64,000 nucleotides of DNA from a bacterium (GCA_030680695.1 JAUXUT010000149.1:469768-533767), one strand, 5' to 3'. Counted from the stretch's first letter, positions 17,187 to 48,718 are shown. Numbers and translations: made by a program. The notes: generated by a model not told the origin, from the sequence alone.

Positions 17187-17211
17187 ATAAATAATATTAA
17201 CCCGTAATTTG

Positions 17212-17284
17212 TGCGCGTACTAGGATTTGAACCTAGGACCCCATCAGTATCAGTGATGTGCTCTACCAACTGAGCTATACGCGC
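17212..17284 (-). tRNA. tRNA-Ile (anticodon GAU)
   Basis: GCGCGTATAGCTCAGTTGGTAGAGCACATCACTGATACTGATGGGGTCCTAGGTTCAAATCCTAGTACGCGCA folds as cloverleaf: 7-bp acceptor, GCTC/GAGC D-stem, CATCA/TGATG anticodon stem, loop CUGAUAC, TPsiC loop UUCAAAU; CCA not encoded. Confidence 0.9.
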
Positions 17285-18034: not shown

Positions 18035-18175
18035 GAGGCCATATCGCATTCTATTTTGCCTCGTTCTTTTCGCCAGTTCTTCCCTGGCTTCCATGCAATT
18101 TAAGGTGTTTGCAAAACCCATATTAAATATGATCGACTCCGTAAGTTCCCTACCGAAGTAGGAGAACGGTTTTCA

Positions 18176-19680
<1,505 letters not shown>

Positions 19681-20077
19681 AACCGAGAAGATAGTCACTG
19701 CGCCGAAGCGCCGAGACTTTCCCCTCGATCGAACGAGACAAAACAGACCGCGATATGTTGCCACATCGTTTTCTATCTTGTTGGACTTCCCGTGCTTTCG
19801 GGTCGTCGCAATCCTATTTATTTTTAGTTGGGGTCGAAACTGAATCTGAATCAACCTTGCAACATTCAACAAAAACTCAAAGTAAAATAGATTAAGATTT
19901 TGCACGAGTTAAGAGAAACATCAGAAATAAATCTGACCAGTTTTTGCTAACACGTTCTTAAGTATTACTTCTATTTCAACGATCGGCCCCTAAAGCCCTC
20001 TGTCCTGAGAAAGAAAAATGGTCATCTTGCGAAGCCCATTTCCCTGCCCAAAACCGAGTTTTAAAGGGGTAAGGACT

Positions 20078-20105
20078 ATTATACACATCGGTTGAGGCTG
20101 GTCAA
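20078..20105 (-). promoter_or_regulatory. candidate 16S rRNA promoter TTGACC-N16-TATAAT
   Basis: revcomp GGGCTTGACCagcctcaaccgatgtgTATAATAG, ~390 nt upstream of 16S 5' end, same family as other promoters. Confidence 0.4.
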
Positions 20106-20639
20106 GCCCTTTAGTGCTCTGTTATATGGGGGCCCGGTCACAGGTCAGACGCTCGCCTTGGCAGTGTTTTTATGTGCTGTGGGCAGAAGCATACCACGCT
20201 TGAACTATTCGATGCCATCCTGGATAACCTTGAAAATATGAGGAAATGGAACAATGAGATGGCTATATTCATGGCTCAGGCCCGAAAGGAACCCATAATG
20301 CGCGTATTGCTGTAGGGTGTTAGTATTGCAGCATGGCAAAGAAAGACAACTTTACGGATGTGGTCCAGAATCTCCCAAAGACGCCACCTGCTCCGGCTCC
20401 AAAGCAGCCAGCACCACAGCAGGTTTCAGGGTCTAACGGTGAGGTGATCACGCTCGGACACAATCAGAAAAAATAGGCGAAATTGCGTCTTTTGCAGACT
20501 CCGAATGACTCCGAAAAAATGGGGGTATCGGAGTTTTGCTTTATATAGGGGAGATGGCTTGAACTATATGTGATATGGGATATGGACCTCTTTAATCAAA
20601 AATAGATTCGGAGTGTTTTTAAATTGACTCAAATTGGTT

Positions 20640-20705
20640 GAAATAGAGCGAAATAGAGCGAATTAGAGTGAAAATTTGGGTGATTTAGGGCGAAATAGGG
20701 TGACC
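20640..20705 (+). repeat. short tandem direct repeats GAAATAGAGCG x2 plus degenerate copies (GAATTAGAGTG, GCGAAATAGGGTG)
   Basis: gaaatagagcgaaatagagcgaattagagtgaaaatttgggtgatttagggcgaaatagggtga at left edge of low-GC island. Confidence 0.4.
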
Positions 20706-20744
20706 TAAACGAGCTATTTAGCAGTTTCTATCGGAAATGATAGA

Positions 20745-21188
20745 ATGGTGTTTATGTCTTGGATAAGAGAAGTAAAGACGCATTTTCTGTTCCAGCTTCC
20801 AATTACACTCATAATCGGGATGCTTGCTTTTGGATTTATCTGTACGGGCATGTTCCACTCAGATATGCAAATGGAAAGTGTAAATCCATCTGTAGTTTTG
20901 GCGACCATGGAAAATGGCCAGTCCTGTTGTGGTATAGACATGTCACAACATATTGAATCTTGGAAGCTATTTTCAACTTCGATACCGCAAAGCTCTTCGA
21001 GTATTCTAATTCTTGTGGTCCTAAGTCTTGCTCTCGTCACTTTGTTAAGAAACAAAGTCAATCATCTTCTGCCTGATCGCACAGCTCTATCCTATAGAAC
21101 AATTTTTAGACTTAGCCAGAACCTTTTTTCCATAAATCATCTCGAACTCGCTTTTGCTAGAGGTGTTCTCAATACGAAAGTATATTAA
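20745..21188 (+). CDS. hypothetical membrane protein
   Basis: 147 aa ORF with two hydrophobic helices, first gene of island. Confidence 0.3.
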   Translation: MVFMSWIREVKTHFLFQLPITLIIGMLAFGFICTGMFHSDMQMESVNPSVVLATMENGQSCCGIDMSQHIESWKLFSTSIPQSSSSILILVVLSLALVTLLRNKVNHLLPDRTALSYRTIFRLSQNLFSINHLELAFARGVLNTKVY

Positions 21189-21242
21189 TTGGTTTAGATA
21201 GGACGGTTTGCGTTCTTTTACTTATCTATTTTCCAATTAAAA

Positions 21243-21974
21243 ATGTCTGAACATAAAACAAATCCTCTTTCGATTCCCGCGGCGATTATAATCGCAGGTG
21301 GGCTGATCGGCCTGGGAATATTCTTCGGTTCAAAAAATATAAGTTTGCCCAATGCCGCAGTAACCGCGCCAGCTCCTCAGATTGCAGATGCTCGGTCAAC
21401 AGAAAGTCTCGACAAAATGAGGCCCGTAACAAAAGACGATCATATTCGCGGTATTTTAAATGCACCCGTGAAGATAGTCGAGTACTCGGATACTGAATGT
21501 CCCTTCTGTAAGAGATTCCATTTAACAATGAAGCAAGTAATGGATGAATATGGAGCGAACGGAAAAGTCGCATGGGTCTATCGTCATTTTCCTCTCGATC
21601 AGCTCCATTCAAAAGCGAGAAAGGAGTCTGTGGCTCTTGAATGTGCTGCCGAACAAGGTGGAAACGACAAATTCTGGGCATATGCAGATCGTCTTTATGA
21701 GATCACTCCAGCAAATGATGGCCTCGATTTAGCCGAACTTCCAAAGATAGCGAAGTTCGTGGGATTGGACACGACCAAATTTAATGAGTGTCTTTCGAGC
21801 GGAAAATATGACAAGCATATTGAAGATGATGTCCAAAATGCAGTTGCAACAGGCGGTCGAGGCACCCCTTGGAGCATAGTCGTGGGGGCGCAGGGTAAAG
21901 TATATCCGCTTTCTGGAGCGCAGCCGTATGCCGCTATAAAGCAACTCATAGAGCAGGCATTGCAAAGCAAATAG
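21243..21974 (+). CDS. DsbA-family thiol:disulfide oxidoreductase (thioredoxin fold, CPFC active site), membrane anchored
   Basis: N-terminal TM, VEYSDTECPFCKRFH active-site motif, 243 aa. Confidence 0.8.
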   Translation: MSEHKTNPLSIPAAIIIAGGLIGLGIFFGSKNISLPNAAVTAPAPQIADARSTESLDKMRPVTKDDHIRGILNAPVKIVEYSDTECPFCKRFHLTMKQVMDEYGANGKVAWVYRHFPLDQLHSKARKESVALECAAEQGGNDKFWAYADRLYEITPANDGLDLAELPKIAKFVGLDTTKFNECLSSGKYDKHIEDDVQNAVATGGRGTPWSIVVGAQGKVYPLSGAQPYAAIKQLIEQALQSK

Positions 21975-21978
21975 TACA

Positions 21979-22503
21979 ATGTCGGCACTAAAGATATTCA
22001 GGAACTGGCGATATGCAATTACTTCCATCGTCATAGCGATCACGGTCTTTGCTCTTGCGACCTGGCTGCCAAATTTCCGCCTGCTATCTTTGGTCCTGTC
22101 TGATCCGCTTCTCAGTTTAGGGGAGAAGATATCTTTGCCCGTTAAACTCTTAGCCTCTATAGGTACGAATTTCACAGTCCTGTCAGCAACCTACACAATC
22201 CTCATAGCGATCATACTAGGCATTAATGCTTCTCTGGCTCTTTATCTCGTTCGCAAACGAGTCAGGGCACTCGGAGGATTAAGTATCGGGCTTGTGGGTA
22301 TTACCACTGGCGTCCTAGGAATCGGCTGTGCCGCCTGTGGATCAATTCTTGCCACAACCATTCTGGGAACGATCGGCGGAGCTTCGATCCTTTCGATTCT
22401 GCCTCTGCAAGGAAGCGAATTCGGTATCTTTGGCGTCCTGCTCTCTCTATCTTCGACATATCTTCTAATGAAGCACATTAATAAACCATTAGTCTGTAAA
22501 TAA
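21979..22503 (+). CDS. polytopic membrane protein with intramembrane CAAC (CxxC) motif; possible redox partner (DsbB/VKOR-like role) of adjacent DsbA
   Basis: 174 aa, 4-5 TM, GIGCAACGSILATT. Confidence 0.4.
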   Translation: MSALKIFRNWRYAITSIVIAITVFALATWLPNFRLLSLVLSDPLLSLGEKISLPVKLLASIGTNFTVLSATYTILIAIILGINASLALYLVRKRVRALGGLSIGLVGITTGVLGIGCAACGSILATTILGTIGGASILSILPLQGSEFGIFGVLLSLSSTYLLMKHINKPLVCK

Positions 22504-22518
22504 AATGAAAAAAATAAA

Positions 22519-22935
22519 ATGAAAAACGGAATTATTATCACAGTAATCTCGGCATTGATCCTTGTTGGAGGTGCCTGGTGGGTGACAGCACCCTCAAAAG
22601 ATCCGAACGTAATTACAAAAAAAGGTATTCATTGGCACCCGGAATTGGAAATTTATGTTAAAGGAGAAAAGATAGAGATACCTCAAGGTATTGGTCTTTC
22701 GGGCACGGTTCATAATCCATTGCATACACATGAGGATCTACCCATCATTCATCTTGAGTATGGTGGGAAAGTGACAAAAGATGATACTAAAGTAACGAAC
22801 TTTTTCAGGGTCTGGGGTAAGAGCTTTGGGGAATTCGGGAATAACGTCACAATGAGCGTAAATGGAGTTGAAAATATGGAACTTGAGAACTACCAGATGA
22901 AAGACAAAGACAAGGTCGTGCTGAGATATGAGTAA
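22519..22935 (+). CDS. secreted/anchored His-rich hypothetical protein (possible metal-binding)
   Basis: N-terminal signal anchor; HWHPELE, HNPLHTHEDLP His clusters. Confidence 0.4.
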   Translation: MKNGIIITVISALILVGGAWWVTAPSKDPNVITKKGIHWHPELEIYVKGEKIEIPQGIGLSGTVHNPLHTHEDLPIIHLEYGGKVTKDDTKVTNFFRVWGKSFGEFGNNVTMSVNGVENMELENYQMKDKDKVVLRYE

Positions 22936-22962
22936 TTATTGTATATCTGCGCGCCTGGACAC

Positions 22963-22981
22963 TATACCCCTATAGGGTATA
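22963..22981. promoter_or_regulatory. CsoR-type operator palindrome
   Basis: TATACCCC-TAT-AGGGTATA 11 nt upstream of csoR start, resembles known CsoR operators (ATACCC..GGGTAT). Confidence 0.5.
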
Positions 22982-22991
22982 TGATTACCCC

Positions 22992-23261
22992 ATGACTAAA
23001 AATCCCCATAAAGGAAAATTGATTCGTCGTCTCAAAATCATTGAGGGCCAAATAAGAGGGCTTCAGGATATGATCGAGAAAGACAGATATTGCATAGACA
23101 TCATTACGCAGACGTCCGCAGTGAAAAGAGCGCTCTCGGGTATTGAAGACACTCTCATGGAACATCACCTCTCTACCTGTGCGGTAGATCAAACGCATCA
23201 AGGTAAAGAAAGTAAGACTAAAGCGGAGATATTAAAGGTCTATAGGCTTAAACGAAAATAA
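22992..23261 (+). CDS. csoR: CsoR/RcnR-family copper-sensing transcriptional repressor
   Basis: LKIIEGQIRGLQDMIEKDRYCIDIITQTSAV...HHLSTC: conserved Cys/His/Cys metal ligands of CsoR. Confidence 0.85.
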   Translation: MTKNPHKGKLIRRLKIIEGQIRGLQDMIEKDRYCIDIITQTSAVKRALSGIEDTLMEHHLSTCAVDQTHQGKESKTKAEILKVYRLKRK

Positions 23262-23264
23262 TCT

Positions 23265-25559
23265 ATGCATACCCAAACCTATAAAATAAAAGGAATGCAC
23301 TGCGCGTCTTGCGCGGGCATCATCGAAAAAACCTTCAAAAAGACTGAAGGTGTCGAATCGTCTCAGGTGAATTACGGAACAGAAACCGCCAAAGTGAGTT
23401 TTGATCCTGCAAAAACGAATCCCCAACACCTCTCACAAAAAATCGAAAAACTGGGCTACTCGCTCGTTATTCCGGAAACCGCGAACGAGATGGGTATGTC
23501 AGCGAATGAACACGCGGCTCATTTAGGGTTTAACCAATCAAAAAAAGAGAAGCTCGCAGAAATAAAGGATATGAAAAGCAAGGTTTTTTCAGTTATCCCT
23601 CTCGCCATCTTCAGCATCTTTGTCATGGGATGGGATATCCTTGGCCAGTTCGGCTTTGTGCCCGAGATGTCTCGAACGCTTTACGAATTTTTCCACCACC
23701 TCCTTCCGATATTCGCGACATACACCCTTTTCGTCGTTGGAAAACCATACCTTCTCGGCATGGTTCGATTCTTTCGATTTGGCAAAGCGAATATGGATAC
23801 CTTAATAGGTATAGGCACATTCGTCGCCTTTCTCTTTAGCTTTATCGTCACCGCCTTTGAAGAATCACTCGCCCCGTATATCAACGTCGAACAGAATTAT
23901 TACGATGTAACGATAATCGTTATTACCTTTATCGCCCTCGGTAAATATCTAGAGGCTCGCGCCAAAGTGAAAACGGGAGACGCAATAGAAAAGCTCGTCG
24001 GCCTTCAGGCAAAAACCGCCTTGGTCATACGAGACGGAAAGGAGCAAGAAATCGCCTCTTCGGATGTAAGGCGTGGTGATCTCGTCATAGTAAAGCCAGG
24101 ATCGAAAATTCCTGTCGATGGCATGATAACTGAAGGATCTTCATATGTAGATGAATCAATGGTCACCGGAGAACCTATGCCTGCGGAAAAAAATATCGGA
24201 GACACTGTTGTCGCAGGCACAATAAATACAAATAGCGCGTTCACGTTCCAAGCCACCAAGGTCGGCTCTGAGACACTTCTTGCCCACATCATAAAAATGG
24301 TTGAGGAAGCTCAAGGAAGTCGCGCTCCTATACAAGCGTTAGCCGACAAAATCTCAGCTGTATTTGTTCCTGTGGTGCTTGTGTTGGCTTTCATAACCCT
24401 CGGCGCATGGCTGCTTTTGGGTTCTGGTCCGCTCGGCTTTTCTCAAGCTCTCTCATACGGTCTTACCTCATTTGTGGGCATTCTTATTATTGCTTGCCCG
24501 TGCGCCCTCGGCCTCGCCACTCCTACAGCCATCATCGTCGGAGTTGGTAAAGGAGCTAAAGAAGGCATCCTCATTAAGGACGCCGCCACTCTTGAAAAAC
24601 TTCACAAGGTTGATACTGTCGTCGTCGATAAAACAGGCACGATCACGCGAGGTAAACCAGAACTCACGAGCATACAGAATCATTCAAAACTTTCCGACGA
24701 AAAAGTTTTGGCGATTCTTGCCACCCTCGAAAGTAAATCAGAACATCCTATTGCCCACGCTGTTATCGAGCATGCGAAGGCGAAATCAATTAGCCTTCTG
24801 TCTATTGAGAAATCAGAAATCATTAAAGGCAAAGGTATAAAAGGTCACATCGAAGGTGTTGAATATTTTGCCGGCAACACAAAGCTCATATCTGACCTCA
24901 AACTTTCTTTAGATACTCAGAAGCTTGAAGCAGAAACTAAAGAAGGTAAAACTCCTGTCGTCCTCGCCTCAAAAAGCGAGGTGATCGCTATTGTCATGGT
25001 TTCTGACGCGATAAAACCAGAGGCGGTGGAAGCGGTAAAGAACCTTCACAAGCTTGGTATAAAAGTTGTTATGCTCACGGGAGATAACAAATATACGGCT
25101 CAGGCGATCGCAAAAGAAGTCGGCATCGATGATGTGGTCGCGGAAGTACTCCCTGAAGACAAGCTCAATAAAATAAAGGAATTGCAGGCTGCGGGACATA
25201 TCGTGGCTATGGCGGGCGACGGCGTAAACGACGCCCCAGCTCTCGCTCAAGCAGATGTAGGTATTGCTATGGGCACGGGAACTGATGTGGCGATCGAGAC
25301 GGCTGGCATCACACTCCTTAACGGTGATATATCCAAACTTGTGAAAGCGATAAAGCTTTCGAGGCTTACGATGCGCGGCATCAAGCAGAATCTTTTCTGG
25401 GCGTTTATCTATAACGTCGTAGGCATCCCTCTTGCGGCAGGACTATTCTTCCCTTTCTTCGGCTGGCTCCTCAATCCAGTGTTCGCGGGTCTCGCCATGG
25501 CATTCTCAAGCGTATCTGTTGTCGGAAATTCGCTTCGACTTAAGGCAAAGAAATTATGA
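23265..25559 (+). CDS. copA: copper-translocating P1B-type ATPase CopA
   Basis: N-terminal HMA (GMHCASCAG), CPC motif ([13 protein letters not shown]), DKTGTIT phosphorylation site, [10 protein letters not shown] hinge; 764 aa. Confidence 0.9.
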
Positions 25560-25957
25560 TTACCAAGAAACTCAAACTCATATTCGGGATTTCCATACCC
25601 GTTTTCATCCTGCATGGAATAGAAGAATTCGTGACACACTTTTCTGACAAGGATGCGCATGCCCAAGCGATCTTCGGAATGTTCTCCTCGCTATCGAATC
25701 ACGGAGCTACTTTCGTCGTGTTTCAAATAATGTTCTGGCTCCTTCTTATAATTAGCCTCCTCCTCATAATGGGCGGTAAGTGGCAGTTGTACACTCTCGG
25801 GATCGCGGGTATTGTCTACATCTATGAGCTCCATCACGTATACAAGGCCATCGCTATTGGAGGCTACTACCCGGGCCTTTATACATCTATAGCTTTCCCC
25901 ATAATCGGATTTTTCTTTTGGAAAGAGTGGCTCGCAATTAAAAAACAAAACATATGA
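25556..25957 (+). CDS. HXXEE-domain membrane protein
   Basis: LHGIEEF motif in first TM, 4 TM helices, overlaps copA stop by 4 nt. Confidence 0.55.
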
Positions 25958-26973
25958 AAACCTACACCTTCCACATTCAGGGAATGCACTGCAAGGCATG
26001 CATTGCTCTCACCGAAAGCGAGATCGGTGATCTTAAGGATGTCTCCTCTGTAAAGGCGTCATTAGCTGACCATACGGTTGTTGTTGCAGGAGAATTCGGA
26101 GACAAAGTTCCTGAAGATATTGCGGATAGCCTTACCGCTGTCCTAAAATCCCATGGATACACGCTATCGGTCGGAAAGCAGAAGCATGTAGTAGATTGGT
26201 CCCAATTTAAAATAGCTCTTCCAATAGCGGCTGCATTCGTCGCTCTCTTCATCGTTCTTCAAAAAATCGGTTTGGTGAATCTTGTGACCACATCAGACGT
26301 TGGATACGGAACGGCGTTTATCATCGGTCTCATCGCCTCAGTTTCCACCTGTATGGCTGTTGTGGGCGGGCTCGTCCTCTCTATGTCGGCAAACTATGCC
26401 AAAGAGAATGATAAGGTTCGTCCACAAGTGCTTTTCCATATTGGAAGGCTTGTATCATTCTTTGTGCTCGGCGGCGTGATTGGAGTTCTCGGTTCAGCGT
26501 TTCAACTGAATGGAACGGGTACGTTTATTTTGAGTGTTGTTGTGGCGCTTGTTCTTCTTATTCTCGGCCTGAACCTTCTCGATGTGTTTCCATGGATGAA
26601 GAAGCTTCAACCATCATTACCGAGCTTCATAGCGAACCGCGTTCAAAGTCTTAAAAAGATAAATCACACGCTTACGCCGCTTTTAATCGGTGTTGCGACT
26701 TTTTTTCTTCCCTGCGGATTCACTCAGTCGATGCAGATCTATTCGCTTTCAACCGGCAGTTTTTGGACCGGAGCGATGACGATGTCTGCTTTCGCACTTG
26801 GAACACTCCCGGTTCTAGCTCTTCTCTCATTCAGCTCACTTGGAATACACACTAAAACTCGTTCGGGGGTATTCTTTAAGTCCGCAGGGTTAGTTGTAAT
26901 CTTCTTTGGTATATTTAATCTCATCAACGGTCTTGCGGCTGCCGGAGTCATAGAGCCATTATTCAGTTTTTAA
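25954..26973 (+). CDS. heavy-metal-associated (HMA) domain fused to polytopic permease-like membrane domain (DsbD_2/CcdA-like or TauE/SafE-like) with TM cysteines
   Basis: N-terminal GMHCKACIALTE HMA motif; SVSTCMAVVGG and FFLPCGFTQS TM Cys motifs. Confidence 0.5.
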   Translation: MKTYTFHIQGMHCKACIALTESEIGDLKDVSSVKASLADHTVVVAGEFGDKVPEDIADSLTAVLKSHGYTLSVGKQKHVVDWSQFKIALPIAAAFVALFIVLQKIGLVNLVTTSDVGYGTAFIIGLIASVSTCMAVVGGLVLSMSANYAKENDKVRPQVLFHIGRLVSFFVLGGVIGVLGSAFQLNGTGTFILSVVVALVLLILGLNLLDVFPWMKKLQPSLPSFIANRVQSLKKINHTLTPLLIGVATFFLPCGFTQSMQIYSLSTGSFWTGAMTMSAFALGTLPVLALLSFSSLGIHTKTRSGVFFKSAGLVVIFFGIFNLINGLAAAGVIEPLFSF

Positions 26974-26987
26974 CATCAACATAAAGT

Positions 26988-27401
26988 ATGAAAAAATTTA
27001 GTGTCCCAGTATCAATTATCGTTTCTGCAATTATTGTGGCAGGATCCATATATTTTTCAGCAAATTCATTTGGCGGCGGATCTGACACAGTCGCTAAACC
27101 CACCACAGCAGTAAATAACATATCCACAGAGGGTGGTAAGCAGATAATCGATATTATGGCTAAAGGAGGCTATTCTCCTCGCCAAACCGTAGCTAAAGCA
27201 GGTGTTCCTACAGTCCTTCGTATTAAGACTAACGGTACTTTTGATTGCACCTCTTCTCTGAGTATCGCCGCTCTCAACTATAAGGAAAATCTACCGCCGA
27301 CGGGCGTTACGGAGATCGAAGTCCCTCCGCAAAAAGCTGGCGCGAAGCTCACTGGTCTCTGCTCTATGGGCATGTACAACTTCTCCGTCAATTTTAATTA
27401 A
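26988..27401 (+). CDS. secreted cupredoxin-like small protein (possible Cu-binding; C..C.MGM)
   Basis: signal anchor, IDIMAKGGYSPRQTVAKAGVPTVLRIKTNGTFDC, C-terminal LCSMGMYNF. Confidence 0.4.
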   Translation: MKKFSVPVSIIVSAIIVAGSIYFSANSFGGGSDTVAKPTTAVNNISTEGGKQIIDIMAKGGYSPRQTVAKAGVPTVLRIKTNGTFDCTSSLSIAALNYKENLPPTGVTEIEVPPQKAGAKLTGLCSMGMYNFSVNFN

Positions 27402-27419
27402 TTTTAACTTTTACACGTT

Positions 27420-28355
27420 ATGAAACGGATACTTCTCATACTTGGAATCCTAATTCTTCTTATCGGTGGTTTTATCATTGCATCGAAAGATAGTGATGAT
27501 ACCAAAGCCACTCTAGGAATATATTGTTCTTCTGACGGCACCCTTTCGGACATGATGCCAATCCAGAGTCATCGCTCGTACTGCATAAAATCGGATTCGA
27601 ATGGTAAGACGTATGCACTCAACGCTCCGAATTCATATTCGTTCTTGATCGTGGATGACCAAGGTAATACTCTCAAGGATTATGCGATTACTCACACAAA
27701 GCCTATGCATGTTATTGCTGTTCGAAAGGATCTCGCATATTTTCAGCATATTCATCCTGAATTCGATAAAGCGACGGGGACATTCACTCTCGCGGATCTT
27801 GCATTCCCTGAAGACGGTGAATACCGTATCTTTGCCGATTTCGCTCCCGAAAAGGGACAAATGGGTCCTATGGGAGAACCTCTCGTCGTCACTATTTCAG
27901 ACGACGTGAATGTTGGTTCCGACAGAGGCTACGCTTCTAGGCCGCTCGGGTCCGAGGAGCGTACAAAAGTTGTTGATGGGTATCAGATAAATCTTGCTAA
28001 AGAGGAAACTCTTCAAAGCGGCGAGGAGTCTCGCCTTGCATTCAATATCTCTCAAAATGGAAAGCCTGTGACTGATATGGAGGAATATCTAGGTGCTCTC
28101 GGGCACACGGTTGTTCTCAAAGAAGGAACCCTTGATTTCATACATGCTCACCCTGTCGAAGATGTGGATGTAAAGCAGACGGGAGCTGTTAACTTTTTGG
28201 TCAGTTTTCCTGAAGCTGGCAAGTATAAGGTATTCAGTCAATTTCAGAGAGGCGGAAAAGTATTTACAAGTGACTTCGTTGTGTCGGTTGTTCAGGGTGT
28301 ACAACCTTCAACTCCAGAGGAAGCTGATGAGAATGTTCGAAGCATGAAACACTAA
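27420..28355 (+). CDS. secreted hypothetical protein with HIHPEF / HAHP His motifs (possible metal-binding)
   Basis: 311 aa, N-terminal signal anchor. Confidence 0.4.
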   Translation: MKRILLILGILILLIGGFIIASKDSDDTKATLGIYCSSDGTLSDMMPIQSHRSYCIKSDSNGKTYALNAPNSYSFLIVDDQGNTLKDYAITHTKPMHVIAVRKDLAYFQHIHPEFDKATGTFTLADLAFPEDGEYRIFADFAPEKGQMGPMGEPLVVTISDDVNVGSDRGYASRPLGSEERTKVVDGYQINLAKEETLQSGEESRLAFNISQNGKPVTDMEEYLGALGHTVVLKEGTLDFIHAHPVEDVDVKQTGAVNFLVSFPEAGKYKVFSQFQRGGKVFTSDFVVSVVQGVQPSTPEEADENVRSMKH

Positions 28356-28357
28356 AC

Positions 28358-29098
28358 ATGGCACAAATCTGGCTTTATTCTTTGGTAAGCGTAGCTATTG
28401 TCAGCCTTATATCGCTCGTGGGGTTAATCACCCTTGGAGTAAGGCAAGAGCGACTACAAAAGGTTCTTTCTTATGTAGTGAGTTTTTCCGCCGGTGCTCT
28501 CCTTGGCGACGTGTTCATTCATATCCTTCCTGAAATCATGGTCGAAGGAAACGCACTTTCGACGAGTGTCTATATCTTAGCGGGCATAGTGCTCTTCTTC
28601 GTCCTCGAAAGGTTCCTTTTGTGGCACCACTCCCATACGGGCCACAATGAAAGCATCCATTCGATGACATACCTGACCGTCTTTGGAGATGCGCTACATA
28701 ATTTTCTTGACGGCATGGCGATTGCAGCGAGCTTCCTCATAAGTGTTCCTGTAGGAATTGCAACGACGGTGGCAGTGATGCTTCATGAGATACCTCAAGA
28801 GATCGGGCAGTTTGCCGTATTGGTTCATGGGGGCTGGAGCAGGAAAAAGGCTCTCATATATAACTTTCTCTCCGCCCTTACAGCGGTTCTGGGAGCAGTG
28901 GTTGTGCTTCTCTTTACTCAGGGAACAGAACAGCCTCTCGCCTTACTTGCGATAGGGGCCGCAAGCTTTATATATGTTGCTATGTCAGACCTGATCCCAG
29001 AGCTTCATAAGGAAACGAGCCCTAAAAAGTCTCTTATACAGCTCTTCTGGATGATCATTGGTATTGGAGTGATGGCGCTCATGCTCCTTCTTGAATAA
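28358..29098 (+). CDS. ZIP-family metal cation transporter (ZupT-like)
   Basis: HILPE, HHSHTGH, HNFLDGMAIA, HEIPQEIG motifs; 246 aa. Confidence 0.85.
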   Translation: MAQIWLYSLVSVAIVSLISLVGLITLGVRQERLQKVLSYVVSFSAGALLGDVFIHILPEIMVEGNALSTSVYILAGIVLFFVLERFLLWHHSHTGHNESIHSMTYLTVFGDALHNFLDGMAIAASFLISVPVGIATTVAVMLHEIPQEIGQFAVLVHGGWSRKKALIYNFLSALTAVLGAVVVLLFTQGTEQPLALLAIGAASFIYVAMSDLIPELHKETSPKKSLIQLFWMIIGIGVMALMLLLE

Positions 29099-29100
29099 CT

Positions 29101-29886
29101 ATGAAGCACAAACATATTCTTGTTGGCATTATATTGTTTCATTTGGTCGCCTTAGGAGCGTTCATGTTTTACCGCAGAAATGACAACGGCAGTGAGAATA
29201 TAGTACGAAATCAAGAACCAGCTACGAGCTCACTTAGCCTTATCCTTTCGCCACAGTCTCCAAAGGATACGGTGATGGTGGATAGCGTTGTGATGCCGGT
29301 GAATGGGTGGGTTGTAGCACGCGCAATAGAGGGAGATCGTCTCAGCCAGGTTATTGAAATAAGCAACTTCTTACAAAAAGGCGCTTATAAGAATATTCAA
29401 ATATCTCTCGGTGATTTTTATGACGGAGAGGACTTGATAGTCATGATTTATGAGGACCAGGGTGACGGAACATTTAACGACATGGATTTGCCTGCTCTCG
29501 ACGATGAAGGATTAATGACGGCTGTGTACGTAAGAACTGGCGAGTCTTTGCCATCGAGTATCATTGAAACCGACCCGTCGAGTATGCCTGCTCATAACAT
29601 GTCGGGTATGGCAGGTATGACGAGGATCCGCTACACAGACAACGGCTTCCTTCCCAAGGAAATTAAGGGTCCTGTCGGAACAATGGTTGAGTTTGTGAAT
29701 GAAAGCAGTATGGATATGTGGGTCGCCTCTAATTTGCACCCTGAGCACGAAGAGCTTCCGACATTCGATCAATTTAGACCTTATAAAATAGGAGGTGTTT
29801 ACCGCTACGTCTTCGATAAGGCTGGCACATGGGAATATCATGATCATTTGAATCCTGCATTAGAGGGGGTTGTTAACATTCAGTAG
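29101..29886 (+). CDS. membrane-anchored protein with C-terminal cupredoxin-like/metal-binding domain
   Basis: signal anchor; C-terminal GPVGTMVEFVNES...GTWEYHDHLNP. Confidence 0.35.
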   Translation: MKHKHILVGIILFHLVALGAFMFYRRNDNGSENIVRNQEPATSSLSLILSPQSPKDTVMVDSVVMPVNGWVVARAIEGDRLSQVIEISNFLQKGAYKNIQISLGDFYDGEDLIVMIYEDQGDGTFNDMDLPALDDEGLMTAVYVRTGESLPSSIIETDPSSMPAHNMSGMAGMTRIRYTDNGFLPKEIKGPVGTMVEFVNESSMDMWVASNLHPEHEELPTFDQFRPYKIGGVYRYVFDKAGTWEYHDHLNPALEGVVNIQ

Positions 29887-31047
29887 ATGAAAAAATCGAT
29901 CCTTTTTACAATCTTGCTGCTACTTCTTACGGGCAATTCTGTTTATGGCCAAGAGGGTGAAATTATGCAGGATAAAAAGGAAACTGTTCTCTCTAAAGTA
30001 ATCGATATTGTTAAGCAGGAGCAGAAACAAATTCCCGGAACAGATATACAAGGAATCCACCAGTCGATACAGATCGAGATTCTTGAAGGTAGTGCAAAAG
30101 GTCGCATTGTTGTTGTAAACGACGATTTCCTAGAACTGAAAAAGGGCCAAAAATTCTATCTACTGCATACGGTCAGGTGGGAGGGCGGGGCTGATCTCTA
30201 TTCAGTGCAAGAACCGTACAGGCTACCTAAAGTTTTTATCTTCGTCGGCATTTTTCTTCTGAGCGTCTTTGTTTTTGGCGGCATTCAAGGTATTCGGGGA
30301 CTCGTGAGCCTTGTCGGTAGTTTCATCTTGATACTCTATGTTTTGCTTCCCGGCATTCTTCAGGGCTATTCGCCGATATTGATCACCATTTCGGTTTCCT
30401 CGCTGATTATTATATTAGGCTCTTATGTAACTCATGGATTTAATAAGACGACTTCTTCTGCGGTCGTAGGGATGATCGCGACTGTTATTTTTACAGGCAT
30501 TCTCGGCTACGTGGCCGTCATATCAACAGGACTAAGCGGTTATGGATCGGAAGAGATCGTATATCTAAATCTTAATGCTCGCGGTTCCATTGATGTGGTA
30601 GGTCTTTTGTTTGGCGGCATTATGATCGGTCTTCTTGGTGTTCTCTATGATGTGGCGATAGGCCAAGCTATCACTGTAGAGGAACTGTTAAGGATCGCGC
30701 CTCATGTGCCTCGGAAGACCATATATCAGAGAGCGATAAGGATAGGACGCGAGCATATTGGAGCACTGGTGAACACTTTAGCGATTGCATATGTAGGTGC
30801 CGCTTTGCCCATGTTACTACTCGTTCTGCAGGCTTCGACCGATAGTATCTGGGTTGTGCTCAATAGAGAGAGCTTTTCTACCGAGATCATCCGAACGACG
30901 ATCGGTAGTCTCGGATTAATATTGGCGGTTCCAATCACAACAATTATTACAATGTGGATGCTCAATAGGGGTAAAAAAGTAATCGTGGATAAGAAATTAA
31001 TTGAGAAAGAGGAACACGCCTTAGAACACGTCGGACATAAGCATTAA
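29887..31047 (+). CDS. YibE/F-family polytopic membrane protein
   Basis: signal peptide + soluble N-domain then ~7 TM; GIMIGLLGVLYDVAIGQA and LVNTLAIAYVGAALPMLLLV typical of YibE/F. Confidence 0.6.
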   Translation: MKKSILFTILLLLLTGNSVYGQEGEIMQDKKETVLSKVIDIVKQEQKQIPGTDIQGIHQSIQIEILEGSAKGRIVVVNDDFLELKKGQKFYLLHTVRWEGGADLYSVQEPYRLPKVFIFVGIFLLSVFVFGGIQGIRGLVSLVGSFILILYVLLPGILQGYSPILITISVSSLIIILGSYVTHGFNKTTSSAVVGMIATVIFTGILGYVAVISTGLSGYGSEEIVYLNLNARGSIDVVGLLFGGIMIGLLGVLYDVAIGQAITVEELLRIAPHVPRKTIYQRAIRIGREHIGALVNTLAIAYVGAALPMLLLVLQASTDSIWVVLNRESFSTEIIRTTIGSLGLILAVPITTIITMWMLNRGKKVIVDKKLIEKEEHALEHVGHKH

Positions 31048-31059
31048 TTAATATAAAAA

Positions 31060-32328
31060 ATGTTACTTGGAATAAAAAGCAAAAAAATACTGTTCGTACG
31101 CCACCTCTTCGTAGCAGGCTTAGGTTCTCTGCTGACGTATTTGTTCTATAAGTCATATCCTCAATGGGGTGTGGACCATGCTATGTGGAGGTCATTTGCA
31201 CACACTGCTTTTGTTCTCCTTGTCGTCTCTCTTATCGTTGGACCTATGTCGAAACTGTGGCGTCCGTTCACGCGGCTGGTTTCTTGGAGGCGAGAGTTTG
31301 GGGTATGGTTTTCTGTATTCGCCGTTGGTCACGGCTACGTTATATGGGAACGCTGGGCACAAGGAGACGTGATGAGGCTCTTTGGTTTTGAGTATTTGGA
31401 GCAAGTGGGAGGTTATATTCTCTCTCGACCCGAGGTAGGCATCATGAACTTAATGGGACTTATGCTGCTTCCGATGATTATTCTGCTGACTATCACGTCT
31501 TTTGACAGGGCTGTTAGTTTCCTTGGTATTTCCTCATGGAAATGGCTTCATAATTCATTAGCTCACGTTATTTTTTATGTGATTGTGCTACGCGGCATTC
31601 TGTACCTGTTCTTTTTCTTCGAGCTTTCATATCCTCGAATGGCGGTGTATCCGCCCGTCTGGTTTTTGTATCCCTTTATCGGAATGGCGCTTCTGGTGGT
31701 GCTTTTGCAGAGTGTGGCATTTATTAAAATCGTTCTCCGTCAGAGAGCGGCTACAAGCCGCCGCGGGTTTAACATTCAAAGCATAACTGTATGTTTTCTC
31801 GGAGTATTATTCATACTTCCTATCGCGCTTCCCGGAGGAATGATTCTCTATTTGGAAAGTCGGTCAGTAGATGTTCCTCCCGTTTCGGCACAGGTATCAA
31901 AAAAATATTCCCAGAGTTTCTATATGGTTATTAATAGCGGCAATCAGGATATTCACCTTTGGGCGAGGGATCTTGATAGCAAGCCGTACTTCCGAGAAAC
32001 GATAGAGGTGGGAGGTTTGCCGATATCTCATAAAATATACAAATTTAGTGAGCGAGCGATATACGTTGCTCAATTAGACGAATCAAAACGCCTTGCCTGG
32101 TCTAAATCCGAAAATATAGAGCCTGAAAGCATAGGTATCTCGGGACTTGCGGGAGGTCCTGGTGTGTGGGCATTGCAATACGATAAGGGAAAGCATCAGA
32201 TTACCGTGGACGGCAAAGCGCTGGCAGTTACTATTCATGGCGTAGATGAAGTTATTGAAGACGAAGTGTTCAAGCTCCCGAACTTTCAAAATTCCGTATC
32301 GCCATCACAGCAGTTAATGAACCAGTAG
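31060..32328 (+). CDS. ferric-reductase-like transmembrane (heme-binding FRD) domain protein with C-terminal extracytoplasmic domain
   Basis: paired His in TM helices (HTAFVLL, HGYVIW, HNSLAHVIFYVIV). Confidence 0.55.
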   Translation: MLLGIKSKKILFVRHLFVAGLGSLLTYLFYKSYPQWGVDHAMWRSFAHTAFVLLVVSLIVGPMSKLWRPFTRLVSWRREFGVWFSVFAVGHGYVIWERWAQGDVMRLFGFEYLEQVGGYILSRPEVGIMNLMGLMLLPMIILLTITSFDRAVSFLGISSWKWLHNSLAHVIFYVIVLRGILYLFFFFELSYPRMAVYPPVWFLYPFIGMALLVVLLQSVAFIKIVLRQRAATSRRGFNIQSITVCFLGVLFILPIALPGGMILYLESRSVDVPPVSAQVSKKYSQSFYMVINSGNQDIHLWARDLDSKPYFRETIEVGGLPISHKIYKFSERAIYVAQLDESKRLAWSKSENIEPESIGISGLAGGPGVWALQYDKGKHQITVDGKALAVTIHGVDEVIEDEVFKLPNFQNSVSPSQQLMNQ

Positions 32329-32329
32329 A

Positions 32330-33019
32330 ATGAATCGAGTGTACAACACGACCCTTATCGGTAGGAGGAAGGTGGCGGCAAACACACTGGAAATCTCGAT
32401 CAAGAGACCGACTGATTTTTTGTTTGAACCAGGTCAATACATTCAGCTGAAAATTCCCAAGCTTTCATACTCGGATTATGACGGTGCATCGCGCGTGCTT
32501 TCTATTGCCTCATCTCCGCTTGATGAGGAAAGCATATCGCTGGCATTTAGAGACACTAATAGTGGGTTTAAGCGCACGATCAGGGAATTACCCATGAACT
32601 CGCAAATAATCATTGAAGGGCCACATGGATTTCTTGTGCTTCCCGAGGATCCAGGCTGTTCGGTATTTTTTATCGCGGGAGGAATCGGAATAACACCGTA
32701 TTTGAGTATGATTCAATATGCTCTTGAGAGGGGTTTTACCTCCTCTATGACGCTTATATACGCTAACAGGGACAAAGAAAGCGCCGCTTACCTAGATCAA
32801 CTACAGACATTGGCAAAGCGTTACTCATCATTTTCCCTTAAAACTGTATTTGGAAAAATCGATGAACTCTATATTCAGCAAAATATAAATAGCACAGAGG
32901 GCGCTAAGTGGTTTGTGGCTGGGCCACCAGCAATGGTAAGTCATGTGCATGGCACTCTTGTGTCCTTAGGGATAGACGACGCAAATATATGTCTTGAAGA
33001 ATTTACGGGGTATGAATAG
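32330..33019 (+). CDS. FAD/NAD(P)-binding oxidoreductase (ferredoxin-NADP reductase-like) partner of FRD membrane protein
   Basis: SRVLSIASSP (RxYS FAD motif), GGIGITPYLSM NAD(P) motif; begins 2 nt after upstream stop. Confidence 0.75.
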   Translation: MNRVYNTTLIGRRKVAANTLEISIKRPTDFLFEPGQYIQLKIPKLSYSDYDGASRVLSIASSPLDEESISLAFRDTNSGFKRTIRELPMNSQIIIEGPHGFLVLPEDPGCSVFFIAGGIGITPYLSMIQYALERGFTSSMTLIYANRDKESAAYLDQLQTLAKRYSSFSLKTVFGKIDELYIQQNINSTEGAKWFVAGPPAMVSHVHGTLVSLGIDDANICLEEFTGYE

Positions 33020-33123
33020 TCCACGAGAACTCTCGTGGACTGATAGCGGTTTTGGAGCTATCATGTTCAATGACAATAGAATATAAAAGTAGCCTAAACT
33101 AGACATTGTCTGGCATGGCGAAA

Positions 33124-33232
33124 AGCCCTATCAAGCATAAAGAACCCGTCATGGGGTTTGCTTGATAGGCCGTATCGGGAAACCGGTACGAGAGGTTCGG
33201 CCTCTACCCGTGGCGGGCTTTTTGTTTATTGC
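33124..33232. repeat. structured intergenic element: 13-nt direct repeat CTATCAAGCATAA (x2) with inverted copy TGCTTGATAGG, plus palindrome TCCACGAGAACTCTCGTGGA at 33021-33040
   Basis: read directly between FNR-like gene and next gene. Confidence 0.3.
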
Positions 33233-33259
33233 AGATTATAAGACCTATCAAGCATAATT

Positions 33260-33916
33260 ATGAACACACCAGTTCAGTCTCCGGAGGTTAAGACTAACAA
33301 TATAACCCTAAGCTCTGTATTTGCCTGGCTATTTGGAATCATTTTTATAATCCTCGGACTTACAAACATAGGAAAGTGGCCCGTGTCTGGAATCCTTTTC
33401 TTTATCGTTGCAGCGCTCTGTCTTCCTCCAGTGACCAAGCTTCTTAAGGAGAGAGCGAATCTCACGTTTTCAAAAGGTGTAAAGATTCTCGTGGTCCTTA
33501 TTGTTATGGTTATTGGTTTCTCTCTGGTGGGATCTAAGGCTGCCAAGCAGGTAGAGACAAAGGCTGTGGTCGAGGCAGTTGCTCCTGTTCCAGAGCCAGT
33601 TCCTACAATTAAGGTGACGGCGGATCAATTGATGAACGAATATAACGCCAATGAAATATCTGCAGAGGCGAAGTATAAGGGTAAAGTGATTCAAGTTTCA
33701 GGCACCGTAGAATCAATCGGTAAGGACATTGTCGGGAGCGCCTATATCGCTCTTAGAACTGGCGGTGAATATTCAATAAGCTCCGTTCAGTGCATGTTCC
33801 CTAAGTCTGCCGAATCGGCACTGGCTCAGGTATCGAAAGAAGAAAGAATCGTGCTTGAAGGGCAAGTTTCCGGCAAGCTCGGCAATGTGATTGTGAGGAG
33901 TTGCAAGATAATCTAA
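33260..33916 (+). CDS. membrane-anchored protein with C-terminal OB-fold (tRNA_anti-like) domain
   Basis: 218 aa; two TM then KGKVIQVSGTVESIG...EGQVSGKLGNVIV. Confidence 0.4.
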   Translation: MNTPVQSPEVKTNNITLSSVFAWLFGIIFIILGLTNIGKWPVSGILFFIVAALCLPPVTKLLKERANLTFSKGVKILVVLIVMVIGFSLVGSKAAKQVETKAVVEAVAPVPEPVPTIKVTADQLMNEYNANEISAEAKYKGKVIQVSGTVESIGKDIVGSAYIALRTGGEYSISSVQCMFPKSAESALAQVSKEERIVLEGQVSGKLGNVIVRSCKII

Positions 33917-33962
33917 TCACCCGCAAGTCGCTGCAGGCCCTTTGATCTGCTAAGCTTTAGTC

Positions 33963-35615
33963 GTGAGCCTAACTCCCAATGACCTATTAGAGGCTCTGAA
34001 GACCATAAATCAGAGCAAGACAGCATCCACTCCGAAAGAATACCGGTATGTGGTTTACGCTCGTAAATCGACCGATGATAGCGACAAGCAGGTGCGGTCT
34101 CTCGCGGATCAGATAATCGAATGCGAGGAATTTGCCAAGCAGCATGGGCTCAAGGTTGTAGATAAGATCCAGGAGTCCGAGTCAGCCAAGGAGCCGGACA
34201 TTCGCCCGAAATTCAGGGAGATGGTCGAGAGGCTCAAGGCTGGGAAATATGACGGCGTGATCGCTTGGCATCCCGATCGCCTGGCTCGCAATATGAAGGA
34301 TGCTGGGGAGCTTATAGACCTCGTGGACAAGCGGATCATCAAGGATCTCAAGTTCGTGAGCTTCACGTTCGAGAATACGACGAGCGGCAAGATGCTCCTC
34401 GGCATCACCTTCGTGCTCTCCAAGCAGTATTCAGACAACCTGAGCGACAACGTGAGCCGCGGCAACAAGCGCAGCATCGAGGAGGGCAAGTACATAAACA
34501 GGTCCAAGCACGGGTATTTTAAAGACTCAGAACAGTTCTTGAGACCCGACGGCGACAACTTCTTGTTGATCAAGAAGGCTTTCACTCTGCGCCTTGAGGG
34601 TAAGACGCTTGATGAGATAGCTGTCAATCTCAACGAGCGTGGGTACATGCGGGTGAGGAAGGATGGGTCGAGGAGGGTCTATGAAATGGACAAGCAAACT
34701 GTCGCAAAGATACTCAAGGACCCGATTTATACCGGGGTTCTCCTTTACGGAAAGAATCAAGTTAACCTCATGGAGCGGTACGACTTCCAGTCGATGGTTA
34801 CTGTCGATGAGTTCATGAGGATAAACGAGATCGCTAATAATAAGCAGTATCTGAATCTCTTTAAGAGCTATCGGAAGGCCGAGAGCGTAAAGGCGGACCT
34901 CATGCGCGGCATGGTGATTTGTGGCGATTGCGACGAGCCAATGTCGGCAGGCATAACGTCCAAGAAAAGCAAGGCGGGCGTAACCAATTATTTCTATTAC
35001 CGCTGCGAGAATGACGAGTGCGAAAGGTACGGCAAGTCCGTAAGGGCGAAAGTGGTGATGGATTACATCTACAAATACCTAGAGGGAAAGCCTTTCTCGT
35101 CCGAGATGTCGTATAAGCACTATGTCGAGGAAATGAAGAGGGTATCTGCTCTTAAACAGAGCGAGGCGCGGTCCTATCTGGCATCGGTCCAGACCTCTAA
35201 AACGGCCTCAGAGATGAGGTTGGGGAGAATCAAGGACCTTCTCCTTTCAGCCAACGAAGAGAGTATCAAACAGACCTTTATGGCCGATCTGAAGCTCGCT
35301 GAGGCAGATGTTAAGGCGGCCGAGAAGAACATTGAGAAGGCTAAGGCGCTTCTTGAGAGCGGCAAGGAGCCGATCTGCGCCTATTCGGAATTCCTCGAAC
35401 TCATGGAAAACATGGCTACAATACTGCGTTCTATGAAAAACATGAGCGACATCGACTTCATCGTGAAAAAGATCTTCTTGAACTTTACGATACAAGGAAA
35501 AAACGTAGTGGGTGCAACGTTAAATCATCCCTTCAACCTTCTCGATACCTCAAAAGTATCTAATAGTGGACACGGAGGGACTCGAACCCTCAACCCTTAC
35601 GGGACACGCTTCTGA
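33963..35615 (+). CDS. large serine recombinase (resolvase catalytic domain + recombinase domain + zinc ribbon + coiled coil); GTG start
   Basis: VVYARKSTDDSDKQVRSLADQ catalytic Ser, CGDCDEP...YYRCENDEC zinc ribbon, 550 aa; last 16 codons overlap tRNA-Leu antisense. Confidence 0.85.
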   Translation: MSLTPNDLLEALKTINQSKTASTPKEYRYVVYARKSTDDSDKQVRSLADQIIECEEFAKQHGLKVVDKIQESESAKEPDIRPKFREMVERLKAGKYDGVIAWHPDRLARNMKDAGELIDLVDKRIIKDLKFVSFTFENTTSGKMLLGITFVLSKQYSDNLSDNVSRGNKRSIEEGKYINRSKHGYFKDSEQFLRPDGDNFLLIKKAFTLRLEGKTLDEIAVNLNERGYMRVRKDGSRRVYEMDKQTVAKILKDPIYTGVLLYGKNQVNLMERYDFQSMVTVDEFMRINEIANNKQYLNLFKSYRKAESVKADLMRGMVICGDCDEPMSAGITSKKSKAGVTNYFYYRCENDECERYGKSVRAKVVMDYIYKYLEGKPFSSEMSYKHYVEEMKRVSALKQSEARSYLASVQTSKTASEMRLGRIKDLLLSANEESIKQTFMADLKLAEADVKAAEKNIEKAKALLESGKEPICAYSEFLELMENMATILRSMKNMSDIDFIVKKIFLNFTIQGKNVVGATLNHPFNLLDTSKVSNSGHGGTRTLNPYGTRF

Positions 35616-35648
35616 GACGTGCGCGTATACCAATTCCGCCACGTGTCC
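35567..35648 (-). tRNA. tRNA-Leu (anticodon CAG), type II with long variable arm
   Basis: GGACACGTGGCGGAATTGGTATACGCGCACGTCTCAGAAGCGTGTCCCGTAAGGGTTGAGGGTTCGAGTCCCTCCGTGTCCA: 7-bp acceptor, anticodon loop CUCAGAA, variable hairpin CCC-GUAA-GGG, T-loop TTCGAGT. Confidence 0.8.
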
Positions 35649-35710
35649 AATTCCCGCCATGCTAACACCTGATCCGACCAATCGCCACCTGTGTGGAACC
35701 TCCCACGCAC

Positions 35711-45140: not shown

Positions 45141-45261
<121 letters not shown>

Positions 45262-45383: not shown

Positions 45384-48718
<3,335 letters not shown>

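Follow-up and report, generated by a model that had tools for sequence, protein, structure and literature searches.

A putative self-splitting serine-recombinase element carrying copper-homeostasis genes at a tRNA-Leu gene of a Candidate Phyla Radiation bacterium

The stretch of DNA analysed here (hereafter the window; 64,000 nucleotides, positions 469768-533767 of JAUXUT010000149.1 in assembly GCA_030680695.1) belongs to a bacterium of the Candidate Phyla Radiation (CPR, or Patescibacteria), more precisely of Paceibacterota/Parcubacteria, the group from which nearly all source-named homologues of its SecD and recombinase proteins come. Coordinates are window positions unless another locus is named, and L- and P-numbers denote fetched loci and proteins. 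Between a 16S rRNA gene and a tRNA-Leu(CAG) gene the window contains an integrative element (20179-35569; 15,387 bp with one copy of the core counted), and the 17 protein genes at 20745-35615 are all on the plus strand. The lower-GC, co-directional block of metal genes ending in a 550-aa serine recombinase, which the initial annotation had reported here, was confirmed, but its left edge had been misplaced: put at 20700, it is actually at 20179-20182, about 520 nt further left, and the tandem repeats taken for the edge are internal to the element. The features that delimit the element, including its attachment (att) sites and the open reading frames (ORFs) next to them, are the following.

20078-20105, minus strand: promoter of the 16S rRNA gene, TTGACC-16-TATAAT, in the host flank; top promoter match of the region (11/12)
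20179-20182, plus strand: attL core GTGG (left junction), codons TGT GGG; identical core and codon phase at attR
20183-20315, plus strand: sA, the detached 3' end of the recombinase gene (GQKHTTLELFDAILDNLENMRKWNNEMAIFMAQARKEPIMRVLL, then the stop), found by tblastn and fused in frame in protein P0022
20333-20476, plus strand: sB, a conserved 47-aa ORF (MAKKDNFTDVVQNLPK...GEVITLG), 91% identical in L002
20631-20703, plus strand: GAWWTAGRGYG tandem repeats, five copies, 10-nt repeat, sequence GAAATAGAGCG, inside the element
33963-35615, plus strand: large serine recombinase, integrated form, 550 aa (Pfam; phrog_95 integrase, E=3e-67)
35566-35569, plus strand: attR core GTGG (right junction), codons AGT GGA; reverse complement of the tRNA 3' end CCAC
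35566-35648, minus strand: tRNA-Leu(CAG), intact, the integration target attB (ARAGORN; Rfam 57.8 bits)

The recombinase has the domains of a large serine recombinase (LSR). Pfam recognises the resolvase catalytic domain (PF00239, E=1e-25), followed by Recombinase (PF07508, E=2e-10) and the zinc ribbon (Zn_ribbon_recom, PF13408, E=4e-6) in the C-terminal part, and the catalytic domain aligns with 3g13 and the TP901-1 integrase, Ser36 in YARKST matching the YCRVST motif. Only 535 of the 550 residues are encoded by the element itself. The ORF ends at 35615, its final 50 nt running antisense across the 3' half of tRNA-Leu(CAG), and this antisense strand supplies both the 15-residue tail (GHGGTRTLNPYGTRF) and the stop codon. 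The course of the last 16 codons through an intact tRNA gene had been noticed initially; it proved correct and, rather than a quirk of overlapping genes, appears to mark an att site located within the recombinase ORF.

The remainder of the gene is found at the opposite end of the element. The closest homologue of the recombinase (82% identical) lies in L002, at tRNA-Leu(TAG) and with wholly different cargo, and L002 and the window have in common only the recombinase, the GAWWTAGRGYG motif and a 412-nt block (20175-20586) that codes for two 47-codon ORFs, sA and sB. The ATG of the sA ORF, at 20172, is host DNA on the host side of the core. With tblastn, sA was detected at the distal end of the element and in the orientation of the recombinase in L002, L003-6, L087, L089, L090, L094 and L095/96, at 2.3-7.3 kb upstream of the recombinase (13.8 kb in the window), and it is followed by sB in all of these relatives except L087, which gave no sB match. 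Neither sA nor sB matches a family in PHROGs or NCBIfam, and sB has no match in Pfam either. The two parts of the gene are continuous in P0022 (577 aa), an unsplit homologue whose recombinase C-terminus passes in frame into sA-like sequence (...TSKVLNGG joined to RKHTTLELFETATFNLEMVQEFN...) and whose end reads ...SPFSELVTSKVLNGGRKHTTLELFETATFNLEMVQEFNRSLAEFL..., to be compared with MCCGQKHTTLELFDAILDNLENMRKWNNEMAIF... in the sA of the window. The P0022 contig (L102; 4,929 nt) contains no tRNA; the unsplit gene is followed 18 nt on by an sB homologue, the LOOT RNA discussed below is present, and the contig ends overlap by exactly 30 nt, as expected from a circular molecule (4,899 bp) assembled with k=31. 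When the two halves of the window gene are rejoined, they give an ORF of 579 aa that ends ...LDTSKVSNSGQKHTTLELFD...RVLL, then the stop.

The position of the crossover could be narrowed down by comparing the two ends. In all eight integrated elements in which both ends are present, attR and attL share an identical core of 4-7 nt in the same codon phase, as listed here.

Window: GTGG (35566-35569 and 20179-20182)
L002: GTGGGCG
L094: GTGG
L087: GTGC
L095: TTGTGC
L090: GTGC
L089: GTGC
L003: GGTGG

The reverse complement of this shared core is the 3' end of the tRNA (last acceptor bases and discriminator). A start codon of its own is lacking in five of the eight sA fragments. For the window the reconstructed junctions are ...CTCGATACCTCAAAAGTATCTAATAGTGGGCAGAAGCATACCACGCTTGAAC... 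(attP) and ...GGCAGTGTTTTTATGTGCTGTGGACACGGAGGGACTCGAACCC... (attB). A phmmer search with P0022 among 1.84 billion cluster representatives retrieved 14,842 homologues (E<=1e-3); in the best 150 of them homology stops at P0022 residues ~509-550, mostly at 524-538, which is the core, and none of these 150 extends into the last 27 residues. Many homologues have C-terminal tails (GGTRTL, RTRT and others) that are antisense translations of a tRNA T-arm. All this places the predicted attP within the recombinase ORF, 44 codons ahead of the stop, and with attP in this position the tail encoded by 16 antisense codons of the tRNA would be a by-product, or scar, of integration. Two elements stand in tandem at tRNA-Ala(TGC) in L003/L004 (5386-11683), where the frame of the upstream recombinase (34% identical) continues into the downstream sA, so that a hybrid ORF of full length results. 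A second tRNA-Ala, diverged and inverted, is present in L004 (5431-5506), and L003 and L004 part ways within the upstream recombinase gene at ~5946.

On these grounds the following course of events can be proposed. In the free circle the recombinase gene would encode the 579-aa protein, and the attP core GTGG would recombine with the 3' end CCAC (last acceptor bases and discriminator) of tRNA-Leu(CAG), the circle being inserted right after the tRNA gene and leaving it intact. Integration would split the recombinase gene: 535 codons would stay at the right end, where the reading frame would continue into the tRNA in antisense and take its 15-residue tail and stop codon from there, and the final 44 codons would come to lie 15 kb away, at the left end. 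The window element is very probably a recombinase-borne, self-splitting integrative element of a family that is widespread in CPR. At the level of sequence comparison, its anatomy, the split, the core, the family-wide pattern, the circular unsplit relative and the occurrence of the copper cassette in other CPR elements can be regarded as established.

As to the left end, the 16S promoter is the final host-type sequence before the element: positions 20059-20116 align with the 16S leaders of L007 and L008, and host-type similarity stops at 20116. These two loci represent the closest species-representative genomes (SecD 71-72% identical) and have the order 23S-5S-FtsW...SecD-SecF-x-tRNA-Leu(CAG)-(1.3 or 2.6 kb)-16S-tRNA-Ile, with no element between tRNA-Leu(CAG) and 16S; the distance from the tRNA 3' end to the 16S 5' end is 15.9 kb in the window versus 1.3-2.6 kb in L007 and L008. 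At the right end, the tRNA-Leu of the window aligns with that of L008 through ...GTGTCCAC. In a nearer relative (L100; SecD 81% identical) another gene follows the glycosyltransferase gene, and tRNA-Leu is missing from the contig. Since the region is thus variable, the tRNA-16S synteny supports the insertion without proving it. All the metal genes are situated to the right of sA and sB, which begin 75 nt from the host 16S promoter; the metal cluster is therefore enclosed between two halves of one gene, and this supports the initial suggestion of a horizontally mobile, recombinase-borne metal element. This position of the detached fragment largely excludes that the metal genes are outside the element. 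It makes very unlikely, together with the end of host-type homology at 20116, the alternative that the recombinase and a few neighbours form a small element and the metal genes belong to the native chromosome or to a separate, older island beside it, even though related elements are mostly just 2.5-7.5 kb long, the region after SecF and the glycosyltransferase (GT2) gene varies among relatives, one locus (L099, an 8.7-kb contig) shows the copper cassette but no recombinase, and the third-codon-position GC content (GC3) of the recombinase, 0.67, is far from the 0.45 of the cargo.

Other candidates for the left junction were considered and given up. A junction at 20117-20164, or a crossover in the palindrome GATAC-N7-GTATC, was dropped after the in-frame core had been found. 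The inverted similarity of 20090-20127 to the 3' half of the tRNA overlaps the 16S promoter and is attributable to chance (p~0.4 against shuffles), and inverted tRNA-like pieces in L094 and L090 turned out to be adjoining sequence or other tRNAs. No second copy of the 3' 30-mer of the tRNA was found in the window at <=3 mismatches, and local alignments of the left flank with the tRNA were not significant, so that no displaced tRNA-Leu fragment or significant tRNA remnant was seen at the left end. The GAWWTAGRGYG repeats, possibly regulatory, are common only to the window element and L002. In L002 (9911-9977) they abut the recombinase start upstream, and in the window the cargo intervenes, from which it follows that cargo was inserted on different sides of the motif.

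The composition of the element is distinct from that of its flanks, as would be expected of integrated mobile DNA. In 1-kb windows GC content is 0.43-0.47 inside the element and 0.45-0.56 outside; the mean per gene is 0.443 for the cargo versus 0.499 for the flanks (Mann-Whitney p=3.6e-7), and the corresponding GC3 values are 0.45 and 0.53 (p=1.9e-5). The GC contrast claimed from hand counts is therefore significant gene by gene, but it is smaller than those counts had suggested and does not extend to the recombinase gene (GC 0.50), the GC3 of which is above that of cargo and host alike. This mismatch of GC3 between recombinase and cargo indicates that the element is a mosaic. Tetranucleotide distances, another check proposed initially, likewise set the element apart from the flanks, being 0.23-0.29 inside it and mostly 0.14-0.24 outside, although values of 0.28-0.29 also occur in the rRNA genes and in one flank stretch (57001-60000).

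More than 1,700 CPR homologues of the window recombinase were found. In all 16 CPR serine-recombinase loci sequenced beyond the stop codon (the window and 15 fetched loci, 21-82% identical to the window recombinase, a few elements being represented more than once), the stop lies 10-69 nt inside an antisense tRNA. The targets are tRNA-Leu-CAG (twice), Leu-TAG, Ala-TGC, Val-TAC (five distinct elements), Asp-GTC (twice), Pro-TGG, His-GTG and Ile-GAT. Three of the 16 recombinases are just 21-30% identical to that of the window, namely those of L097, L047 and L071. The latter two loci are among 80 SecD-anchored control CPR loci chosen regardless of recombinases, and their serine recombinases (L047, 15810-17347; L071, 10998-12689; 28-30% identical) end inside antisense tRNA-Ile-GAT and tRNA-Asp-GTC, respectively, which suggests that serine-recombinase elements targeting tRNA genes are common in CPR genomes. 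A metagenome scan yielded only eight loci. The cargo of L002 comprises hypothetical genes and two type III hammerhead ribozymes (4136-4190 and 6475-6529, minus strand); the occurrence of so similar a recombinase at another tRNA-Leu gene with different cargo further supports the mobility assumed in the initial annotation.

A prophage or a conjugative element (integrative and conjugative or integrative mobilizable element, ICE/IME) with metal-resistance genes as morons could be imagined, given that the recombinase matches PHROG integrases and the gene next to the LOOT RNA a superinfection-exclusion family. However, searches of the 17 proteins against Pfam, PHROGs and NCBIfam revealed no capsid, tail, terminase, relaxase or type IV secretion gene; the scan of the viral database IMG/VR gave no relatives, and the phage and plasmid serine recombinases searched are at most 25% identical to that of the window. 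We consider this origin extremely improbable.

As for the present state of the element, the main rival to a self-splitting element that is still mobile is an immobile relic: the truncated recombinase would be inactive after integration, as proposed for the archaeal 'suicidal' integrases, and the island would be fixed. Nearly every database copy is in the split state, no circular form of the window element was observed, and a review of SSV-type integrases argues that fragmentation of the gene precludes excision without an intact integrase copy (PMC8371274). In the CPR elements, however, the integrated recombinase retains every recognised domain, all eight detached sA fragments are still open and conserved, and closely related ends with different cargo, along with the circular relative, argue for ongoing cycles. 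A relic is, in our opinion, unlikely, if far from negligible, and the window element may be supposed to be still able to excise. With the C-terminal 44 residues replaced by a tRNA-derived tail and sB cut off from the recombinase promoter, the activity of the enzyme or its direction would presumably change. It is possible, and we put it forward only tentatively, that a large family of CPR serine recombinases uses integration-coupled gene splitting as a built-in switch. In this case the 579-aa enzyme of the free circle would integrate, and the exchange of the tail together with the uncoupling of sB would alter its activity or directionality with no separate directionality factor involved.

Several points weigh against the self-splitting, mobile element as reconstructed here. 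Neither an empty site nor a circular junction of the window element was seen, and look-ups of the exact recombinase, flanking GT2 and sB proteins returned the same contig or nothing, hence no empty-site variant. The closest relatives that have the site, L007 and L008, are too distant at their SecD identity for an empty site to be compared base by base, and L100, without tRNA-Leu after its glycosyltransferase gene, represents a region that is variable anyway. P0022 is the single unsplit copy found, and the circularity of its contig consists in a terminal overlap of k-1, which identical tandem copies could produce as well. As regards the att sites expected of an LSR, the junctions share only the 4-7-nt core, and dyad symmetry in the attP reconstructed here is weak. 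The element contains no transfer machinery and hence no visible route between cells, and its cargo, given the strong difference in GC3, may have joined it recently or after integration.

Comparison with characterised systems shows both common and unusual traits. The window recombinase has the same order of domains (resolvase catalytic, recombinase, zinc ribbon) as phiC31, Bxb1, A118, TP901-1, SPbeta SprA, CcrA/B and XisF, and in common with known LSR integrases its gene lies at the element end by the att site, with a short core and no long direct repeats. Besides its low identity to the phage and plasmid LSRs, it differs from them in targeting the extreme 3' end of a tRNA gene and in having attP in its own ORF, the last 44 residues being replaced by the tRNA-antisense tail; we know of no characterised LSR with these two properties. 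In the integration-dependent immunity of mycobacteriophages described by Broussard et al. in 2013, attP reportedly lies inside the repressor gene. There, as in the window element, integration at a tRNA gene alters the C-terminus of an element protein and the free and integrated forms differ, but the split gene is that of the repressor and the integrase is a tyrosine recombinase, whereas in the window element it is the recombinase itself that is altered.

A parallel in design is provided by the SSV-type 'suicidal' integrases of viruses and plasmids of archaea (SSV1, pTN3, pT26-2), in which the att site is in the integrase ORF and integration at a tRNA gene fragments it (PMC8371274); in both cases the gene is split to opposite ends of the element. 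According to the same 2021 review, self-splitting integrases are known only in archaea and only among tyrosine recombinases (PMC8371274), while the window enzyme is a serine recombinase in a bacterial host. Since, unlike in the SSV type, only the C-terminal 44 residues are detached, the integrated form keeps all recognised domains. In Islander-type islands the integrase is of the tyrosine type, and a displaced piece of the tRNA 3' end is repeated directly at the far end (PMC4383910). With them the window element shares site-specific location at the 3' side of a tRNA gene, an integrase adjoining the tRNA and adaptive cargo; it falls outside their definition by its serine-type enzyme, its repeat of only 4 nt and the lack of a tRNA fragment. 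A literature search brought up no LSR with tRNA-end targeting or an internal attP, no serine-recombinase islands in CPR and no bacterial or serine 'suicidal' integrase, and a self-splitting serine-recombinase family of CPR was not found described in the literature searched.

The remaining genes of the element are mostly related to metals and redox chemistry. The contents named in the initial annotation were borne out by Pfam, with the reservation that the Ferric_reduct match scores 25.3 bits, below the curated cut-off of 28 bits. In the list below, the 147-, 174- and 138-aa proteins are without a match in Pfam, PHROGs and NCBIfam.

Within 20745-22935, plus strand: 147-aa membrane protein
21243-21974, plus strand: DsbA-like thiol-disulfide oxidoreductase with a CPFC motif (PF13462/PF01323)
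21979-22503, plus strand: 174-aa membrane protein with CAAC
Within 20745-22935, plus strand: 138-aa exported protein
22956-22985, plus strand: promoter and CsoR operator, ATACCCCTATAGGGTAT between -35 and -10 of the predicted promoter
22956-27401, plus strand: copper cassette (promoter and CsoR operator, CsoR, CopA, HXXEE, HMA-DsbD_2, cupredoxin-like; Pfam)
27420-33019, plus strand: YtkA-like, ZIP, DUF7282, YibE/F, ferric-reductase-like transmembrane protein and FNR-like flavoprotein (Pfam)
33091-33212, plus strand: LOOT RNA (Rfam RF03000; Rfam match 33091-33205; 83.4 bits versus a gathering score of 46.4)
33260-33916, plus strand: membrane-anchored OB-fold protein, tRNA_anti-like (PF12869, E=3e-25; phrog_8545 'Sie-like', E=1e-18)

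The cassette has the constitution of a CsoR-CopA copper resistance operon: the repressor CsoR (PF02583, E=6e-25), the palindromic operator named initially, TACCC-N5-GGGTA, which is situated within the predicted promoter, and a P1B ATPase with HMA, E1-E2 ATPase and HAD domains and the CPC and DKTGT motifs in its translation. Unlike the usual operons of this kind, it is extended with HXXEE, HMA-DsbD_2 and cupredoxin-like (Pfam Cupredoxin_1) genes. The HXXEE gene (25556-25957), located between CopA and HMA-DsbD_2, is missing from the otherwise collinear cassettes of L097 and L099 and is therefore a local insertion. Judging by family membership only, CopA would export Cu(I) upon derepression of CsoR, assisted by thiol-disulfide and copper-binding helpers in the periplasm or membrane; ZIP, YibE/F and the ferric-reductase/FNR pair would be further modules of the cargo, which presumably confers copper tolerance.

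Three proteins of the cassette, CsoR, CopA and HMA-DsbD_2, have counterparts of 81-94% identity in L097 and L099 (46-59% for the cupredoxin-like protein), another point in favour of horizontal mobility. CopA (MDP1625304.1) is 94, 86 and 82% identical to other CPR copies, the best non-self SecD values being 81, 81 and 76%, and the CopA search gave more than 100 clusters at 76-94% identity. The comparison of CopA and recombinase homologues suggested at the start of this work pointed to CPR for both proteins: among the 120 best CopA matches, all those with a named source are from CPR (Paceibacterota, Andersenbacteria) or from an unclassified metagenome-assembled genome, and it appears that other CPR bacteria, not lineages outside the CPR, form the donor pool. 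In L097 a 533-aa serine recombinase (21% identical) that is antisense over tRNA-His is found at a distance of 5 kb from the cassette, with a LOOT RNA alongside; the far end of this element was not located. Copies of the copper cassette thus move between CPR genomes, at least some of them on elements like the one described here. The main cargo of the 4.9-kb circular relative L102 is a 567-aa AAA_15/AAA_21 ATPase (118-1821). Such AAA ATPases are known in some anti-phage defence systems, and this gene, as well as the restriction-modification genes beside the L003 elements, hints that the family also carries defence genes.

The LOOT RNA is preceded by a promoter-like site (33036-33064), and its 3' end consists of a stem and a U-run. 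Further copies are as follows.

L003: 8413-8540
L087: 5068-5190
L091: 712-826
L094: 9771-9893
L095: 7821-7932
L097: 5289-5408
L102: 2433-2557

LOOT occurs in 9 of 15 distinct serine-recombinase elements; a covariance model built from seven copies detected none in the 80 SecD controls, which amount to ~1 Mb of CPR DNA. Compensatory changes are seen in 24 of the 32 predicted pairs across seven elements. In each of the eight copies examined (seven distinct ones, L091 and L093 being the same element) a small-protein gene, mostly with a hydrophobic N-terminal segment, follows on the same strand after 4-70 nt. In the window this is the OB-fold protein gene, whose PHROG family is annotated as Sie-like superinfection exclusion. 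This arrangement fits, without proving it, a role of LOOT as a cis-acting leader of the downstream gene. LOOT may be a regulatory component of CPR serine-recombinase elements. A literature search retrieved no paper giving LOOT a function, and the main text of the 2017 candidate-RNA survey by Weinberg et al. does not discuss it.

The rRNA genes around the element are not linked, and their arrangement is unusual: 23S-5S is separated from the 16S-tRNA-Ile pair that follows by ~25 kb of protein genes. The same order is retained in the relatives L007 and L039 (the latter with two introns).

17211-17284, minus strand: tRNA-Ile
18175-19680, minus strand: 16S rRNA
45147-45254, minus strand: 5S rRNA
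45390-48709, minus strand: 23S rRNA, with a group I intron at 45794-46098

A Shine-Dalgarno-like motif precedes just 3 of 40 window genes, and the 3' end of the 16S rRNA (18165-18210) reads GGATTATTTC where GGATCACCTCC is expected and lacks CCUCC. This confirms that translation starts without Shine-Dalgarno pairing, in agreement with the SD-less (CPR-like) genome inferred initially.

CPR bacteria have very small genomes, and their mobile DNA is, to our knowledge, poorly charted. The stop of a recombinase gene in an antisense tRNA, combined with an in-phase distal fragment, may serve as a rule for mapping islands in uncultured genomes and, if the proposed mechanism is true, would delimit thousands of CPR genomic islands. 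The orphan LOOT RNA gains its first genomic context. Large serine recombinases are widely used in genome engineering. As a source of tools, a family occurring in nature whose tRNA-end targets can be predicted, and which may contain a switch of its own, is therefore of interest in practice. The self-splitting design in bacterial serine recombinases suggests a convergent solution and possibly a new control of the direction of recombination; should the switch be real, no self-splitting integrase system would have been known before, either from bacteria or from the superfamily of serine recombinases. For the CPR themselves, the 14,842 homologues point to widespread tRNA-targeting integrative elements that would move adaptive cargo, such as the copper-export cassette, between lineages.

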